The notes: a model not told the origin generated them from the letters alone. A DNA stretch of 41,055 nt from Nitrosopumilaceae archaeon (GCA_052389415.1 JBQTHX010000019.1:1-41055), one strand, 5' to 3'. Counted from the first letter of the stretch, positions 26,350 through 32,899 are shown. Numbers and translations: made by a program.

Positions 26350-26688
26350 TTGCAAAAATGTGAGTTTTGTGGATCACAGTTTGGAGAACGCAGGTGTTAT
26401 TTTTGTGGTAAACAATGCTGTACTTCATGTATGACAGATGACAGAAGCAGATGCAAACGTTGCTATGTAAACAAGAGAAAGCTTGGTTGGAAAGTTTTAA
26501 GGCGAAACAAAATTTTGCTTGGATTCATTGCGTTTGTATGGATTTATGCAGTGTATCCTATCCCATTAGTTCCTGGATTAGATCCAACATTTTACTGGAT
26601 TACACTTTTTGCAGCAATCTTGTTTATGATTCCCGCAGGATTGATGATATTTTTTTGGTCTCGAAATCCGCCTGCATCAGACATTTAG
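26350..26688 (+). CDS. Cys-rich Zn-finger membrane protein
   Basis: Four CxxC pairs followed by two TM helices. Confidence 0.78.
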   Translation: MQKCEFCGSQFGERRCYFCGKQCCTSCMTDDRSRCKRCYVNKRKLGWKVLRRNKILLGFIAFVWIYAVYPIPLVPGLDPTFYWITLFAAILFMIPAGLMIFFWSRNPPASDI

Positions 26689-27701
26689 CCAAGTCTAGAA
26701 ATAACTTCTTGTGTAAATTCCTGCGTAGTCCTATCTCCACCGATGTCTTTTGTTTTTATCCCTTGTTTTACGACACCGTATACAGAAGATTCTAGTTTAT
26801 TTGATATTTCAGCACATCTCTTATCGTTATTTTTTTGTCCTAACCAATCAAACATCATCTTTGCTGAAAGAATGAAAGAGGAAGGATTTGCAGCTTGTTT
26901 TCCAGCGATATCAAACGCCGCTCCATGAACTGGTTCAAATAAAGCAAAATCATCCCCAATGTTTGCAGCTGGTGCCATCCCAAGTCCTCCTACCACTTGA
27001 GCTGCTTCATCAGATAAAATATCTCCAAACAAGTTTGTTGTTACTATGACGTCAAAATATTCTGGTTGTCTAATGAGATTCATTGCACAAGCATCCACGT
27101 ACATTTGTTCAAAACTTATCAGGGGAAATTGTTTTGCAACCTCACTACACGATCGTGCAAAAAGACCATCTGTCTTTCTCATCACGTTTGATTTGTGTAC
27201 ACAAGTAACTCTCATCTTCTGATTCCGTTGTGTTGCAGTCAATAATGCGTATCTTGCTATCCTTTTTGATGCACTTTCAGAGATTGTACGTAAAGCAATA
27301 GCTGTATCTTCGATCTCAAACTCTCTGCCAGTATAGAGATCCTCTGTGTTTTCTCTTACTATGACTAGGTCTATGTTGTCCTTTAGTGCAGGCATGTTTG
27401 GATAAGATTTGGCAGGCCTAATGTTTGCATATAGATTAAGAATCCTTCTTAAAACAACAATTACATCTGCTGCACTTTCTCCGACTGGTGCCTTCAAGCA
27501 CGCGTCTGATCTTCTGATGGTATCTAATGTTTCTTCTGGTAAAGCTTTTCCTGTTTTTGCTAATGCTTTGTCACCAGCTTCAAGTTTTTTTATCTCGATT
27601 TTTAGATTAAGTTTATCATTTATTGTTTCTAAAACTTTAATGATTGATTCTGATATCTCAGGCCCTATGCCATCTCCTGTTATGAGAGAAATTTTATACA
27701 T
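26685..27701 (-). CDS. leuB: 3-isopropylmalate dehydrogenase (IDH/IPMDH family)
   Basis: GDGIGPEI, LYANIRP, RENTEDLY, HKSNV, NLFGDILSD, EPVHGAAFDIAG; downstream of leuA. Confidence 0.88.
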   Translation of the reverse strand: MYKISLITGDGIGPEISESIIKVLETINDKLNLKIEIKKLEAGDKALAKTGKALPEETLDTIRRSDACLKAPVGESAADVIVVLRRILNLYANIRPAKSYPNMPALKDNIDLVIVRENTEDLYTGREFEIEDTAIALRTISESASKRIARYALLTATQRNQKMRVTCVHKSNVMRKTDGLFARSCSEVAKQFPLISFEQMYVDACAMNLIRQPEYFDVIVTTNLFGDILSDEAAQVVGGLGMAPAANIGDDFALFEPVHGAAFDIAGKQAANPSSFILSAKMMFDWLGQKNNDKRCAEISNKLESSVYGVVKQGIKTKDIGGDRTTQEFTQEVISRLG

Positions 27702-29219
27702 CTAACTTCCCAATTTTTTTTGTTTTAGAATATTCTTTAACATTATTCTGTTTATTCCATCAATCATTGCTTGTACGCTTGTGATTACGATATCTTCACC
27801 AATTGATTTTGCTGAGGCAAGATTGCCATATACATCTTCAACTTTTATTGTTACTTCACAAAGAGCATCAGATCCGCCTGCGATAGAATCAAGTCGGTAA
27901 TCTTTTATTCGTACTTTCGCAATCTCTCCAGTTATCTTCTGTATTGCATTAATTGATGCATCTACAGGGCCAACACCATAATCGGTTGCGATAAAGTCCT
28001 TTCCTTCTATGTTTAGTTTCACAAATGCATATGGCATGTTGCCAACGCCGGTAGAAACAGAAAACCCTGTTAAATGAACCAGTCTTCTAAGACCAGATTG
28101 TTTCATTACCTCGCCTGCAATGGAAAGTAATTCAACATCTGTAACATGTTTTCCTTGATCTCCGAGTTTTTTCACTGCCTCAAGAATTTCGTGAATCTGT
28201 TCTTTAGCGGGCTGGATCCCATATTCCTCTAGCATGGCAGCGACCCCATGCGCTCCTGCGTGCTTTCCAACTTGGAACCATCTTGTCCTTCCTACTAGTT
28301 CGGGACTGATTGGTTCATAGGTCAAAGGATTACTCAAGACTCCATGTGTGTGGATTCCGGATTCGTGACCAAATGCATTTTCTCCGACAATGGCTTTGTT
28401 TGGTTGTACGTGCACTCCTACTACACTTGAAACATACCTTGATGTCTCGTAGAGTAGTCGTGTGTTTATGTTAGTTTCATATTTCTTATCAAACTGTAAG
28501 CATTGTAATGCCATTACAAATTCTTCAAGTGACGCATTTCCAGCTCTTTCGCCAATTCCATTAATTGTTACGTGCGCACACTGTGCACCTGCTTGAATTC
28601 CGGAAATTGCATTTGCTACTGCTAATCCAAAGTCATTGTGACAATGAACACTTATCGGTAGTTTAGAAGCCTCTAGGGCATCTCTAGTAATCTCTGCCAT
28701 GTATCCTGGAGTGGAATATCCTACAGTGTCTGGAATGTCTATCCTATCTGCACCAGCATCAGCAACTTCCTTGAAGACTTTGCGCAAAAATTCTCTATCG
28801 GTTCTTGTTGCATCTTCGGCGGAGAATTCTACTTGTAATCCTCTTGATTTTCCATATTGAACCGCTTCTATTGCCTTCTCTAATGCTTCCTCTCTCGAAA
28901 GTTTTAATTTGTATTTTAGGTGAATGTCAGAAGTCGCAATGAATGTGTGAATATATTTAAGACCTGCTGTAACAGCCGCATCAATATCTTTTTTGTCAGT
29001 TCTTGCCAATCCACAAATTTCCGCTTTCAAATTAGCACTAGTTATCATCTTTATTCCACTCATCTCACCTTCCGAAATTATTGGAAATCCTGCTTCGATT
29101 GCATCAACGCCAAGCTCATCCAGTCTTTTTCCGATGTTTAGCTTTTGTTCTGGTGTTAAAGCAACTCCTGGAGTTTGTTCGCCATCTCTTAATGTGGTAT
29201 CGAAAATTCTAACTTTCAT
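27702..29219 (-). CDS. leuA: 2-isopropylmalate synthase (LeuA/CimA family)
   Basis: IFDTTLRDGEQTPG, HCHNDFGLAVAN, GERAGNA, NAFGHESGIH, C-terminal regulatory domain G.GPVDA. Confidence 0.92.
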   Translation of the reverse strand: MKVRIFDTTLRDGEQTPGVALTPEQKLNIGKRLDELGVDAIEAGFPIISEGEMSGIKMITSANLKAEICGLARTDKKDIDAAVTAGLKYIHTFIATSDIHLKYKLKLSREEALEKAIEAVQYGKSRGLQVEFSAEDATRTDREFLRKVFKEVADAGADRIDIPDTVGYSTPGYMAEITRDALEASKLPISVHCHNDFGLAVANAISGIQAGAQCAHVTINGIGERAGNASLEEFVMALQCLQFDKKYETNINTRLLYETSRYVSSVVGVHVQPNKAIVGENAFGHESGIHTHGVLSNPLTYEPISPELVGRTRWFQVGKHAGAHGVAAMLEEYGIQPAKEQIHEILEAVKKLGDQGKHVTDVELLSIAGEVMKQSGLRRLVHLTGFSVSTGVGNMPYAFVKLNIEGKDFIATDYGVGPVDASINAIQKITGEIAKVRIKDYRLDSIAGGSDALCEVTIKVEDVYGNLASAKSIGEDIVITSVQAMIDGINRIMLKNILKQKKLGS

Positions 29220-29700
29220 CTGCTCCACCTCGTGCTAATGCACATATTCCAGTTCTAGCAATGTCGATGATTCCAAAACCTCTTACAAGGTCTTCAAACG
29301 CATTTATTCTATCTGGCGTTGCAGTCAATTCTACCATAATCGAGGTTTTTCTTACGTCATGTACTTTACACTCGAATGCTTTTGCTATGTTCATAATCTC
29401 CATACTGTCTGAGGGTTTTCCTACTTTTATCTTCATCAGTACAAGTTCTCTGTATACGCTCATCTTTTCATCTAAGCGTTTTACCTCTATGGTATCAATC
29501 ATCTTGTCAAGTTGCTTAATTATTTGAGCCACCTGTTTTTCGTCTCCTAGTGTTGTTATTGTCATCCTTGAAAATTCTGGATTTTCAGTTACGCCCACTG
29601 AAATGCTATCTATGTTAAAATTTCTGGATCTAAATAGATTTGTAACCTTAAACAATATTCCTGGTTTGTTCTCTACAAGTAGTGAAATTATACTCCACAT
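29209..29700 (-). CDS. ilvN: acetolactate synthase small (regulatory) subunit
   Basis: LLVENKPG.L.....F..R.FNIDS..VG, SRMTI, RELVL.K, ARTG..AL.RG. Confidence 0.95.
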   Translation of the reverse strand: MWSIISLLVENKPGILFKVTNLFRSRNFNIDSISVGVTENPEFSRMTITTLGDEKQVAQIIKQLDKMIDTIEVKRLDEKMSVYRELVLMKIKVGKPSDSMEIMNIAKAFECKVHDVRKTSIMVELTATPDRINAFEDLVRGFGIIDIARTGICALARGGADES

Positions 29701-29709
29701 TATGAACCA

Positions 29710-31398
29710 CTATGAAGGAAGAATCATATCCGTTAGAGGAGTCCCAGGAGCAACAAATGGTAAGACATCCTCTTCTGGATCTATTGGGATGTCTATTACT
29801 GTAGCTACATCGCTTTTTAACGCAGTTTTTATTGCATTACCTATCTCATCAAGTGATTGCGCTCTAATTCCTTGAGCTCCATAAGCTTGGGCAATTTTTA
29901 CATAATCAGGGCAATTCTTAAGATCAATGGCCATCATTCTTCTATCATAAAAAGTTCTCTGCCACTGTGCAACCATTCCAAGAGAAAAGTTATTCATGAT
30001 AAAAACAATCACAGGCAAGTTATCTAGAACTGATACTGCAAGGGAATTTTCTGTCATGTTAAAGCTTCCTTCTCCAGCGATATCGACAACCGGCACACTG
30101 GGTTTTGCTGCTTTTGCACCTATAGAAGCTGGAAATCCCCAACCCATTGTACCAAGACCAGTAGAGCTAAAGAATGTTCCAGGATGTATTACATCAAAAA
30201 ACAATGATGCCCACATTTGATGCTGACCCACTTCGGTTGTTACAATAGATTGATGTGGAAGTACTTCTCTGAGTTTACGTAATACTTTGGCAGCAGCAAG
30301 TGGATGATCGTGTAGTTTCAAGTTTTCTCTATAGTAATCTTTTGTTTCCTTCATTCTTTTTAACCATGGATAGTCTTCATTGCGTTTGATTGCTTTTTGG
30401 ACCAGCATCTTTACCATTATTCTTAACGACGCTTTTACATCCCCGACTATTGCCACTGTTGTTGTTTGGTTCTTGCCAATCTCTGCGGGATCCACATCCA
30501 TGTGAATAATTTTTAGTCTTTTTTCAAACTCTTCAAAAGTCCCAACGGATCTATCTGAAAATCTTGAACCGGCAGCAAGAACGCAGTCTGCCTCAGTCAT
30601 CATCTTATTTGCTTCTGCATGGCCATGCATTCCAATCGGTCCTAATGAGAGAGGGTGGTTTTCTGGAAAGGAACCTTTGCCCTTGAAAGTAGTAACTACA
30701 GGAATCATAAGAAGCTCAGCTAATGATTGGATTTCAGCAAATGCACTTGAGATAATGACGCCTCCGCCTGCAAGAATTATTGGTCTTTCTGCAGAAAGTA
30801 GCATATCTATTGCACGCTCTATCTGAGTGATATCTGGATCAACCCACGGATGATATCCTCTGATTTTCACTTCCGATGGAAATGGAATTTCGGCTTCATT
30901 TTGTTGCACATCTTTTGGTATGTCAATGAGTACAGGACCTGGCCTGCCAGTAGAGGAAATGTAAAATGCCTTCTTTACTACCTCGGGTATTTCAGTTGCA
31001 CTTGTAGGTTGAAATGCATATTTGACAATTGGATTTGAAATTCCAATAATGTCGCTTTCCTGAAATGCATCACGTCCTATCATTTTGAGTGGAACTTGAC
31101 CTGTTATAGCTACCATGGGTGCAGAATCAGCTTGAGCTGTTGCTATTCCAGTTACAATATTTGTCGCACCGGGACCAGATGTGGCAAAGCAAACTCCCGG
31201 TCTTCTGCTTACTCTACCGTAACCATCTGCCATGTGGGCTGCTGATTGTTCATGTCTTGCAAGTATGTGTCGAATGTTACTTTTGTAAAGCTCGTCATAT
31301 ATTGGCAAGTTTGCACCACCTGGAAGCCCAAAGGCTATGTCCACGCCCTCCTTTTCAAGGGCGACCATTAAAGATCTAGCACCTGATATTTTTTCCAT
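29710..31398 (-). CDS. ilvB: acetolactate synthase large subunit
   Basis: FGLPGGA, RHEQ.A.HMADGY.R, TSGPGATN, GRPGPVLIDIPKD, VGQHQMW, GLGTMG.G.P, LGMV.QWQ. Confidence 0.96.
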   Translation of the reverse strand: MEKISGARSLMVALEKEGVDIAFGLPGGANLPIYDELYKSNIRHILARHEQSAAHMADGYGRVSRRPGVCFATSGPGATNIVTGIATAQADSAPMVAITGQVPLKMIGRDAFQESDIIGISNPIVKYAFQPTSATEIPEVVKKAFYISSTGRPGPVLIDIPKDVQQNEAEIPFPSEVKIRGYHPWVDPDITQIERAIDMLLSAERPIILAGGGVIISSAFAEIQSLAELLMIPVVTTFKGKGSFPENHPLSLGPIGMHGHAEANKMMTEADCVLAAGSRFSDRSVGTFEEFEKRLKIIHMDVDPAEIGKNQTTTVAIVGDVKASLRIMVKMLVQKAIKRNEDYPWLKRMKETKDYYRENLKLHDHPLAAAKVLRKLREVLPHQSIVTTEVGQHQMWASLFFDVIHPGTFFSSTGLGTMGWGFPASIGAKAAKPSVPVVDIAGEGSFNMTENSLAVSVLDNLPVIVFIMNNFSLGMVAQWQRTFYDRRMMAIDLKNCPDYVKIAQAYGAQGIRAQSLDEIGNAIKTALKSDVATVIDIPIDPEEDVLPFVAPGTPLTDMILPS

Positions 31399-31403
31399 TT
31401 TTA

Positions 31404-31410
31404 TTCACCA
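31404..31410 (-). promoter_or_regulatory. Shine-Dalgarno-like GGTGA upstream of ilvB
   Basis: Minus strand reads ...CTTTTGGTGAATAAAA-ATG. Confidence 0.6.
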
Positions 31411-31426
31411 AAAGTAAAACTAAAAA
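31410..31426 (-). terminator. U-rich tract between leader ORF and ilvB (candidate archaeal terminator/attenuation site)
   Basis: Minus strand after the leader stop: A-TTTTTAGTTTTACTTTT (three runs of 4 or more U). Confidence 0.5.
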
Positions 31427-31427
31427 T

Positions 31428-31487
31428 CTACAGTATCAGGTCGACTAGCAAGATACTAGAAATGCCCGTCGATCCTCCTAACTTCAT
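31428..31487 (-). CDS. putative ilv/leu leader peptide, 19 aa MKLGGSTGISSILLVDLIL (not in ORF track)
   Basis: ATG AAG TTA GGA GGA TCG ACG GGC ATT TCT AGT ATC TTG CTA GTC GAC CTG ATA CTG TAG; 7 of the last 8 codons are Leu/Ile/Val; ends 29 nt before the ilvB ATG. Confidence 0.72.
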   Translation of the reverse strand: MKLGGSTGISSILLVDLIL

Positions 31488-31517
31488 TTTGAGTCTATAA
31501 TTTGTCATCAAATATAA

Positions 31518-31533
31518 TTTATAAATATTTCTA
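31518..31533 (-). promoter_or_regulatory. BRE/TATA promoter for the leader-ilvB operon
   Basis: Minus strand AGAAATAT-TTATAAA; TTTATAAA at 31518-31525, about 30 nt upstream of the leader ATG. Confidence 0.6.
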
Positions 31534-31676
31534 GAAAAATCACTTAATATTATCAAAAATATGCAATCCTTTTCATAATTATTTTAAAATCGACTAGACG
31601 TCAAGTGTTAGAAACTTTACATTTTGAGAATCTTTTCATAAGGCTTAAACGGCAAATCAGATAAGCAAGAACAATT

Positions 31677-32081
31677 TTGCCTGATACATCAGAAATAATT
31701 GAAATAATTGGCCATTTTTTTGAAGTCGGAAAAACAAAGAATCTTGCGCCGCTTCGAGCCATCCAGCTTGACGATCCTAGATTTTCAAGTTATAGCGATA
31801 TTCCTCCACTTGATTTGAAGGATTATTCAACTACAATAGCATTACAAGAACTGCGATTTGTTAGTGTTTCTGACTATAATTATGAGATCAAGAATCTGCG
31901 AGTGGATCTCTTTGGTGACACTGCTGTAGTAACTTTTGGGATAATTCAAACTGGTGTTCTTGTGGATAACTATAGCTTTCGTGGACAGCATTTATCCATG
32001 GAAAGCAGAGGAACGTTTGTTTTAGTAAAATCTCAAAAATGGAAGATAGTGCATATACATTTAACAAAAATTTCTGATTAA
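31677..32081 (+). CDS. NTF2/SnoaL-like family protein
   Basis: V.LFGDTAVV, RGTFVLVK...WKIVHIH. Confidence 0.85.
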   Translation: MPDTSEIIEIIGHFFEVGKTKNLAPLRAIQLDDPRFSSYSDIPPLDLKDYSTTIALQELRFVSVSDYNYEIKNLRVDLFGDTAVVTFGIIQTGVLVDNYSFRGQHLSMESRGTFVLVKSQKWKIVHIHLTKISD

Positions 32082-32899
32082 ACAGATGTTGCAGTCTTTG
32101 TTCTTTGTTCCGCAGTTTTGAGTTTATTAAATAAATCGTGTGCTTCCTTGACAGATGTATTTTCATGTACAATCGCTCGTACGGCCTTGATCATAGAAAC
32201 GGGATAATCTGATTGCCAGATGTTTCTTCCCATGTCTACCCCCACGGCTCCAGCTTGAAGCGCGTCATATGTTAATTGTAATGCATCAAGCTCAGTAGCA
32301 AGCTTTGGTCCACCAGCTATAATCACCGGAACGGGGCAACTATCTACAACTTTTTCAAAATTTTCACAATAATACGTTTTGACTAGATGTGCGCCAAATT
32401 CTGCTGCAATCCTACAAGCAAGAGAAAGATATCGTGCATCACGTTTCTCAAGTTCTTTTCCTACAGCAGTTACTGCAAGAACTGGTATCCCGTGTTCTTC
32501 TCCTTCATCTACTAGTTTGGCTAGACTTACAAGAGATTCATGTTCATACTGAGCTCCAACAAAGATTGATAGTGCAAGAGCAGTTACATTGAGTCTAATT
32601 GCCTCCTTTATTGAAGTAGTAATTTTTTCATTTGAAAGATCTTTTCCAATTATGCTAGCGCCTCCTGAAACTCTTAGTACCACTGGTACAGGAAAATTTG
32701 GATCAACTGAGGTACGCAAGACTCCACGTGTGAGCATAAGAGAATCAGCATAAGGCAGTAATGGTTGTATTGTTTTGCGAGGTACTTCTAATCTTTCTGT
32801 TGGCCCCAAGAAATATCCATGATCCACTGCAAGCATTACACCTCGTCCAGTCTCTGATCTAATTATCCTTGCAAGACGGTTTTTCATCCCCCAGTCCAT
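32078..32899 (-). CDS. lsrF: LsrF-like class I aldolase/thiolase (DhnA family)
   Basis: MDWGMKNRL, MLAVDHGYFLGPT, RIAAE.GA..VKTYY, PVP.IIAGGPK, GVDMGRNIWQ. Confidence 0.88.
   Translation of the reverse strand: MDWGMKNRLARIIRSETGRGVMLAVDHGYFLGPTERLEVPRKTIQPLLPYADSLMLTRGVLRTSVDPNFPVPVVLRVSGGASIIGKDLSNEKITTSIKEAIRLNVTALALSIFVGAQYEHESLVSLAKLVDEGEEHGIPVLAVTAVGKELEKRDARYLSLACRIAAEFGAHLVKTYYCENFEKVVDSCPVPVIIAGGPKLATELDALQLTYDALQAGAVGVDMGRNIWQSDYPVSMIKAVRAIVHENTSVKEAHDLFNKLKTAEQRTKTATSV

Follow-up and report, generated by a model that had tools for sequence, protein, structure and literature searches.

Introduction

Can an archaeon adjust the expression of an amino acid biosynthetic operon by letting a ribosome read a short leader peptide, a mode of control that is textbook knowledge for bacteria? 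The question is raised by a stretch of DNA of 41,055 nucleotides (nt) from a Nitrosopumilaceae archaeon (GCA_052389415.1 JBQTHX010000019.1:1-41055), the whole of which is termed the window herein, where the minus-strand operon ilvB-ilvN-leuA-leuB is preceded by a small open reading frame (ORF) that ends in a run of leucine, isoleucine, and valine (L/I/V) codons. A previous interpretation, made from the sequence by itself and referred to as the sequence-only reading, had taken this ORF for a candidate leader peptide that would control the operon through occlusion of a U-tract. We propose that the mini-gene is probably a cis-acting, ribosome-read sensor of leucine, isoleucine, and valine for ilvBN-leuAB. 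If this is true, it represents the first amino acid attenuator in Archaea, and one that is built unlike the textbook version. We know of no published case of leader-peptide attenuation in an archaeon, and no description of one was found in the literature searched, supplementary files lying outside the search. The predicted haloarchaeal leuA leader motif that the sequence-only reading mentions did not turn up in that literature either.

A Leader ORF Rich in L/I/V Codons Precedes ilvB

The leader ORF occupies positions 31428-31487 on the minus strand, from an ATG at 31487 to a TAG at 31430-31428, and encodes MKLGGSTGISSILLVDLIL in 19 codons plus the stop (ATG AAG TTA GGA GGA TCG ACG GGC ATT TCT AGT ATC TTG CTA GTC GAC CTG ATA CTG TAG). 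Leucine, isoleucine, and valine account for nine of the 19 residues and for seven of the last eight, using eight different codons, and the final eight triplets (ATC TTG CTA GTC GAC CTG ATA CTG) are probably the control codons. Some of those at the end are uncommon, as CTG, which occurs twice, makes up 7.8% of the leucine codons of the genome and GTC 12.8% of its valine codons. Counted on the sequence, the G+C content of the ORF is 45% (27/60), compared with 17% (5/29) in the 29-nt spacer that separates the leader stop from the ilvB ATG (31399-31427) and 36% in the window's genome. The position of the ORF, its peptide, its L/I/V content and codon variety, and its being more GC-rich than its surroundings had all been described by the sequence-only reading, and each matches the sequence when re-read, as do the TATA-like box at 31518-31525 and the GGUGA before ilvB, both of which are present on the minus strand.

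How often such an ORF arises by chance can be judged from the same genome, for which crude gene models (ORFs of at least 100 residues) gave 749 upstream regions of at least 60 nt, each scored by the number of L/I/V residues among the last eight of its best short ORF, with ATG starts only. A score of 7/8 is reached by a single region, namely that of ilvB, while four regions reach 6 and 21 reach 5. The regions scoring at least 6/8 lie only before ilvB, ilvE, and three genes that were judged from their translations, without a family search, to be unrelated to branched-chain synthesis. The genes ilvC, ilvD, and leuC were located as well, and the scan returned no region of at least 6/8 before them, their upstream regions not having been inspected singly. 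The 6/8 ORF before ilvE (MFTVVPIAILVCLIV, contig C2) was rejected as a chance occurrence because it is not conserved even inside the genus.

The L/I/V Tail Is Conserved Across Nitrososphaeria

For the comparison with relatives, the 250 nt 5′ of ilvB were taken from the 40 nearest genomes, from named contigs, and from 120 genomes drawn evenly from the class. Regions were kept if 150 nt or more lay upstream and the IlvB identity exceeded 60%; a duplicate (L031, identical to L010), L006 (91 nt upstream), matches without the N-terminus, and all bacterial and Methanosarcinales loci were left out, giving 104 non-identical regions in which the best short ORF ending at most 120 nt from ilvB was scored. 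A tail with at least 6/8 L/I/V is found in 71 of the 104 regions and one with at least 5/8 in 80, compared with one and 10, respectively, of the 104 reverse complements put through the same procedure, while mononucleotide shuffles give at least 6/8 in 49 of 2080 cases. The regions upstream of ilvE in the same relatives, which serve as a further control, reach 6/8 in 2/28 and 5/8 in 4/28, and their peptides are unrelated. The core idea of the sequence-only reading, a leader peptide that matches the products of the operon, called for a conserved short ORF of this kind in relatives, and it is supported by the class-wide conservation of the tail.

The ORFs with at least 6/8 are spread over 34/50 genera and 15/23 families, and they occur in 36/47 genomes of the Nitrosopumilaceae, in 9/15 from other families of the order (single-genome samples), and in 17/27 from other orders, whereas six Methanosarcinales ilvB loci (L047-L049, L051-L053) score 2-4/8. 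Among orders both the nucleotide and the peptide sequences are wholly different, as illustrated by tails such as ..ILLLVDLML, ..VLLVVLL, ..ALIVLLIVV, ..DIILLVLIV, and VLVVPLLVLLL, and between families it is the L/I/V tail that is preserved and not the rest of the peptide. The loci of the Nitrososphaeraceae type (L024, L044, L045, L023) have shorter tails, ..RRFLL, ..KGFLLL, ..RMLLI, and ..LLSILVRG, all directly before the stop, and the leader may here exist in a weaker form or in one restricted to leucine.

Several signatures indicate that the ORF is read as codons. The leader starts with ATG in 71 of 74 cases, and in the Nitrosotalea-like group the stop is TAA, TAG, or TGA at one and the same position and the sole indel inside the ORF is of 3 nt, while those in the 5′ untranslated region (UTR) and the spacer are of 1-2 nt. 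Counted back from the stop, the L/I/V frequency is 0.74-0.94 at positions −1, −2, −3, and −5, falls to 0.51 at −9, and reaches 0.24 at −10, close to the proteome value of ∼0.245, so that the run comprises about 8-9 codons and always ends at the stop. The 70 distinct tails (560 residues), a set selected at 5/8 L/I/V or more, contain 262 leucines, 127 valines, and 60 isoleucines (449 L/I/V), and because the set was chosen on L/I/V content, just the remainder is informative. Phenylalanine (6), methionine (2), alanine (2), and glycine (4) together make up only 14/560, the other residues being mostly S, D, P, Q, and E, and position −4 is D or E in 23/70 tails. These remaining positions are thus polar and not generally hydrophobic, which argues against a membrane peptide. 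As judged from these sequences, the tail is marked by L/I/V specificity and not by hydrophobicity in general.

Two Predicted Hairpins Frame the L/I/V Run

Conserved RNA structure, which the sequence-only reading had missed, is predicted on either side of the L/I/V run. The hairpin termed P1 (31435-31482, minus strand), identified with RNAalifold and relatives, lies inside the leader ORF and pairs codons 2-8 with codons 13-18, its 3′ arm consisting of the first L/I/V codons of the run. The consensus of 15 relatives has 16 predicted pairs, three of which show changes on both sides, and over 19 relatives 91.6% of the cells of P1 are paired compared with 22-48% if the partners are slid, and four pairs change on both sides. 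Its covariation score was reached by none of 500 shuffles, a figure to be read with the caveat that the structure was derived from the same sequences. The window sequence folds into P1 as predicted, folds resembling P1 are met again in other orders (for example, GGAGCAC...GUGCUCC), and for 74 leaders of many families the folding internal to the ORF has a median z of −1.56, with 54% below −1.5. Within the 5′ arm of P1, codons 3-5 (31474-31482) read UAGGAGGAU, a string strongly resembling a Shine-Dalgarno (SD) sequence, which is retained in the window's genus, in L011, and in L034, and not in Nitrosotalea devanaterra.

The second hairpin, P2, is recognized in the window by comparison with relatives as a remnant over the last codon and the stop (31419-31434, minus strand). 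In the Nitrosotalea-like group P2 spans these same elements (GCUGUAAAUUUACAGC), while the window has ACUGUAGAUUUUUAGU, and its stem is weak because one C is missing. In other orders P2 takes the form of a GC-rich stem that begins 1-6 nt after the stop. Folds taken from 9 nt before the stop have a median z of −1.61, with 40/75 below −1.5, and in 74/75 the start of the first helix falls between −9 and +6 relative to the stop, which is partly so by construction as the segment begins at −9. Thus, two predicted hairpins that frame the L/I/V run are conserved.

The weak P2 belongs to one of two natural alleles that differ over 31405-31460. The window carries the type with 19 codons, a TAG stop, and the weak P2. 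The allele that is common in the genus ends in TAA, is one codon longer, has ATG in place of ATA, and possesses an intact P2, and contigs of both were found in a single freshwater-sediment run that belongs to another study. A further idea, that the P2 loop is an internal TATA box, was rejected, as only some of the relatives have TAAATTTA, and L008-L010 carry a different loop.

Promoter and Ribosome-Binding Site

The TATA box TTTATAAA (31518-31525, minus strand) begins 38 nt and ends 30 nt 5′ of the leader ATG. When 74 leaders are stacked on their ATG, an A/T-rich block is evident at −38 to −28, with TTTAWWW starting 30-40 nt before the ATG in 50 of the 74, most commonly at 36-38, and absent in 18. 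From this position and the usual archaeal distance between the TATA box and the start of transcription, the 5′ UTR is predicted to be only ∼5-10 nt long, and no SD signal is visible in it among the stacked leaders. The mRNA of the operon would hence begin a few bases before the leader ATG, and since ilvB follows with a GGUGA of its own (31405-31409, minus strand) 6 nt before its ATG at 31398, the leader has the appearance of a near-leaderless first cistron, with ilvB resembling an internal cistron led by an SD. An SD-like motif before ilvB is shared by 55/74 relatives. In the window the SD has a predicted pairing probability of 0.87, within a weak UUUAC/GGUGA hairpin. No mapped transcription starts in ammonia-oxidizing archaea were found in the literature searched.

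The region between leader and ilvB takes a special form in genera of the Nitrosopumilus type (30/104 loci; L012-L017, L035-L043, L120-L142), which carry TTAAAATTATGG at this place. This sequence forms the 3′ arm in an AU-rich hairpin, AAUUUUAA-CACA-UUAAAAUU, the base of which covaries (CUC/GAG, GUCCAU/AUGGAC, AUCUC/GAGAU). The AUG in this hairpin opens an ORF of 5-7 codons that ends 0-5 nt before the ilvB AUG in 11 loci, and in 12 loci it gives an in-frame extension of ilvB by ∼8 codons.

The U-Tract Is Not the Conserved Partner of the Leader

The leader of the window is followed by a U-rich spacer, AUUUUUAGUUUUACUUUU (31410-31427, minus strand), with runs of 5, 4, and 4 U. The sequence-only reading had placed this U-tract directly at the stop; the tract is indeed there, and one A intervenes (A-UUUUU-AG-UUUU-AC-UUUU). 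The spacer as a whole (31399-31427) has 52% T, which puts it in the top 4.5% of the 749 upstream regions, and at least three runs of 4 or more T are present in only three of these regions. However, just 25 of 75 leaders show 4 or more consecutive U in the 12 nt that follow the first hairpin, and the relatives of the same genus carry AUUUACAGCUUUACUUUU in place of the U-tract, so we consider the tract to be unusual in the window, yet not the conserved partner of the leader. The occlusion mechanism as it had been put forward, in which the stalled ribosome covers the U-tract, is therefore not supported as a conserved feature. An Rfam scan of 31000-32200 returned seven weak matches, none of them to a leader family, the best having an E value of 2.2 and all lying far below the gathering scores.

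A Proposed Mechanism for Sensing Branched-Chain Amino Acids

What can be said from comparison is that conservation extends to the leader ORF and where it lies, to its L/I/V tail, and to the two predicted hairpins; the translation of the leader, the stalling, and the direction of the effect are what we infer from them. In lineages whose sequences are unrelated, the run is strictly positioned next to the stop codon and a hairpin, which suggests that the structure beside it is held open by a ribosome dwelling on the final codons. The leader would thereby let a ribosome gauge the supply of charged leucine, isoleucine, and valine tRNAs. With the amino acids plentiful, the ribosome would cross the last eight codons, terminate, and depart, whereupon the leader RNA would refold into P1 and P2 together with the downstream part of the leader and ilvB expression would be low. 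With the amino acids scarce, the ribosome would linger on the terminal, partly rare L/I/V codons beside the stop, and by keeping the neighboring structure open would raise the expression of ilvBN-leuAB.

If the leader is such a sensor, there are several ways in which it might act on the operon. Better access of ribosomes to the ilvB start region, that is, translational attenuation, has somewhat less than an even chance in our estimation. It is favored because it does without the need for RNA polymerase and ribosome to meet at the right moment, because the build matches that of the mycobacterial polycysteine leaderless short ORFs, and because the AU-rich hairpin of the Nitrosopumilus-type loci encloses an AUG, and in GC-rich orders the hairpin abuts the SD. 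Against such an output, the P2 of the window's clade excludes the SD, and the complementarity between the leader tail and the ilvB SD is no better than that of shuffled tails (median z 0.08, 1/74 below −1.5), for which reason the idea that the tail acts as an anti-SD was rejected. That the lingering ribosome relieves premature termination at the hairpin and U-rich tract, either intrinsic or aided by FttA/aCPSF1, is the more doubtful output, although one to be taken seriously, and some other output, such as protection of the mRNA, we regard as unlikely.

A number of observations weigh against the leader acting as a sensor in the way proposed, or limit how far the proposal can be carried. The counts overstate the number of independent events because the relatives share ancestry, and 33/104 regions score below 6, including eight of nine genomes of family f23 (one of nine passes) and several genera of the Nitrosopumilaceae; the groups without a 6/8 tail are f24, f25, the GC-rich Nitrosopumilaceae genera g2 and g13, g5, which has a small genome, and g8. 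The window's own P2 is eroded, its allele lacking one codon and one C of P2, and in its best fold the A-rich 5′ UTR is the partner of the U5 run instead. The whole leader of the window folds only modestly better than its shuffles, with a z of −1.68, and 13 of 200 shuffles fold equally well. RNAalifold gives two separate hairpins and no alternative (antiterminator) pairing, and none was seen by eye, no systematic search of suboptimal folds having been made. A scan for terminators of the bacterial type found none in 31300-31700, the lack of tail-SD complementarity also counts here, and the predicted pairing of the SD averages just 0.55 over the relatives. No RNA run was found to contain 30900-31700. 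Finally, from the usual footprint sizes only the last 4-5 codons would lie within ribosome reach of P2, and, as the early L/I/V codons are part of P1, P2 would not be opened if the ribosome came to a halt at the first hungry codon.

Alternative Explanations

The alternative that stays closest to the sequence-only reading is termination of transcription at the U-tract, in which a stalled ribosome covers the U-rich RNA, or blocks access of FttA/aCPSF1 or a P2 terminator, and so permits read-through, while quick release stops transcription before ilvB. The spacer of the window is indeed unusually U-rich, P2 followed by UUUACUUUU in the same genus resembles a small intrinsic terminator, albeit one with a short and AU-rich stem, and the distant genome L153 has a GC-rich hairpin followed by six U. 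It is also in favor of termination that aCPSF1 acts together with U-tracts in terminating archaeal transcription (PMC8716108), and that FttA and the coupled ribosome have been hypothesized to compete sterically (PMC11616081). As noted above, however, a hairpin followed by at least 4 U is confined to a third of the leaders, the hairpin in GC-rich orders leads directly into the SD with no U run, the apparent U run of the Nitrosopumilus type is one arm of another hairpin, and the scan of the window revealed no terminator-like site. We infer that P2 would be covered by a coupled ribosome at the stop even with an ample supply of amino acids, and that stalling near the beginning of the run would leave it uncovered, so that the effect would have the wrong sign. 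Such termination is hence a rather unlikely explanation of the element.

The L/I/V codons could also be a by-product of the needs of the hairpins, the element being a conserved RNA structure or an upstream ORF for ribosome delivery that senses no amino acid. P1 and P2 are conserved, and in the Nitrosotalea-like group the 3′ arm of P1 (GTCGA, CTGTA) shows less nucleotide variation than is normal for synonymous sites, as this explanation would have it. It does not account for the fact that the hairpin sequences are wholly different across orders while the tails are still L/I/V (ALIVLLIVV, IILLVLIV, PLLVLLL), nor for the distribution of U in the 560 tail codons of the selected set, where it occupies codon position 2 in 457 but positions 1 and 3 in only 95 and 132, nor for the tail amino acids being the products of the operon, and we consider it improbable. 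A small hydrophobic, perhaps membrane, peptide with a function of its own, merely co-transcribed with ilvB, would explain why the tail is hydrophobic, and small membrane peptides are common and often unannotated. Yet what the families have in common is just the L/I/V character of the final 8-9 residues, a run of this length is too short for a membrane span, the residues usual in membrane helices (F, M, A, G) are scarce while acidic residues recur at −4, and the ORF is always tied to ilvB and is the sole such ORF in the window's genome, all of which makes a membrane peptide highly improbable. A ribosome-read sensor of leucine, isoleucine, and valine is thus the reading that we prefer.

Comparison With Known Attenuators

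Transcription attenuators with leader peptides are known from the enterobacterial ilvBN (ivbL), ilvGMEDA (ilvL), and leu (leuL) operons. The archaeal element resembles them in having a short ORF before a branched-chain operon, enrichment in codons for the products, and RNA structure that follows, the speed of the ribosome being the signal in the enterobacterial systems. It differs from them in several respects. The enterobacterial type has four segments that form mutually exclusive terminator and antiterminator hairpins with a GC-rich terminator and a U run, whereas there are two separate predicted hairpins here, and it has its control codons midway along a longer leader while those of the archaeal leader are the last eight and abut the stop. 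In terms of the traits of a classical attenuator, the window has the enrichment in product codons (7/8, with 71/104 in relatives), and it has neither an intrinsic terminator between leader and first gene, as far as the scan of 31300-31700 shows, nor a match to a curated Rfam leader. The element would therefore work like a leader-peptide attenuator and stand outside the classical family, since both the terminator with its U run and the Rfam match fail.

A tryptophan-responsive system in E. coli, tnaC-tnaA, in which a ribosome stalled at the end of the leader hides the loading site for the termination factor Rho, is the nearest analog of the occlusion idea, as it also places a ribosome at the leader end beside RNA that a termination factor needs. 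There the stall is caused by free tryptophan acting on peptide release, the factor is Rho, and a catabolic operon is induced, whereas a lack of charged tRNA and a biosynthetic operon are proposed here.

A proven case of matching build is that of the mycobacterial polycysteine leaderless short ORFs, where stalled ribosomes block a structure that restricts the next gene's ribosome-binding site and no terminator is needed (Canestrari et al., bioRxiv 10.1101/834739). The two share a leaderless first cistron (here a predicted, near-leaderless one), a run of cognate codons, and an SD-led next gene. The mycobacterial system is a bacterial one that senses cysteine and has a demonstrated SD-sequestering duplex, while the present element is from an archaeon and its tail pairs with the SD no better than shuffles do. 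In Corynebacterium, a short leader or upstream ORF precedes ilvB of the ilvBNC operon and forms part of a three-hairpin transcription attenuator (PMC11857589, PMC10272879). The archaeal leader likewise precedes ilvB, and no such three-hairpin set is seen in the window. In this context, Morbach et al. (2000) reportedly described a leader peptide that forms in the absence of a ribosome-binding site.

We are inclined to think that ribosome-read leader peptides are a native and old form of archaeal control over amino acid synthesis, and that the mini-cistron of the Nitrososphaeria senses tRNA charging and sets ilvBN-leuAB without the terminator/antiterminator switch of bacteria. Ammonia-oxidizing archaea are abundant, slow-growing autotrophs, and to our knowledge almost nothing is known of gene regulation in them. 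As the element is conserved and easily recognized, it would permit a direct test in archaea of ribosomes as metabolite sensors, and it would also serve to probe the effect of a leaderless first cistron on the next one and the response of FttA/aCPSF1 to the position of the ribosome. In addition, it points to a kind of short ORF overlooked by gene callers.

The Operon, Its Neighbors, and Other Short ORFs

The operon that is the presumed target of control (26685-31398, minus strand) consists of ilvB (29710-31398; Pfam TPP_enzyme N/M/C), ilvN (29209-29700; ALS_ss_C and ACT), leuA (27702-29228; HMGL-like and LeuA_dimer), and leuB (26685-27701; Iso_dh), which abut or overlap on one strand; Pfam thus bears out the gene order given by the sequence-only reading. 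The longest ORF for leuA opens with a GTG at 29228 and shares its first 20 nt (29209-29228) with the end of ilvN, and the true start may be further in. The closest named ilvB is that of Candidatus Nitrosotalea devanaterra, with 89% identity, which places the window in a Nitrosopumilaceae archaeon of a sister genus. Nitrosotalea devanaterra (L010), which is in culture, carries the element too, and strains of the Nitrosopumilus and Nitrososphaera types possess versions of their own. The leader allele of the window is real, as identical contigs are present in three DNA runs, possibly including the source, from a single study, and a near-identical contig piece from a run of another study has two differences over 31357-31482.

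Leaders for other amino acids were also looked for in the window's genome, and the best matches, such as a His-rich ORF and a Trp-Trp ORF, precede unrelated genes and look like chance. Another short ORF, the nine-codon MVTTTTDTA, lies 22 nt before an ORF of 405 residues (contig C21, 434-1651, minus strand) that by eye, without a Pfam search, resembles a TrmB-like regulator, and it is probably due to chance because no link to threonine synthesis was found. About 20 nt before the ilvE ATG, nearly all relatives carry TTAATTCTTTAAATTACC (contig C2:3150-3370; L178-L207), which is probably the B recognition element (BRE)/TATA of a leaderless mRNA. On the other side of the leader, the upstream neighbor in the window is a SnoaL-like gene (31677-32081, plus strand; Pfam), and since it points the opposite way, 31399-31676 is a divergent promoter region.

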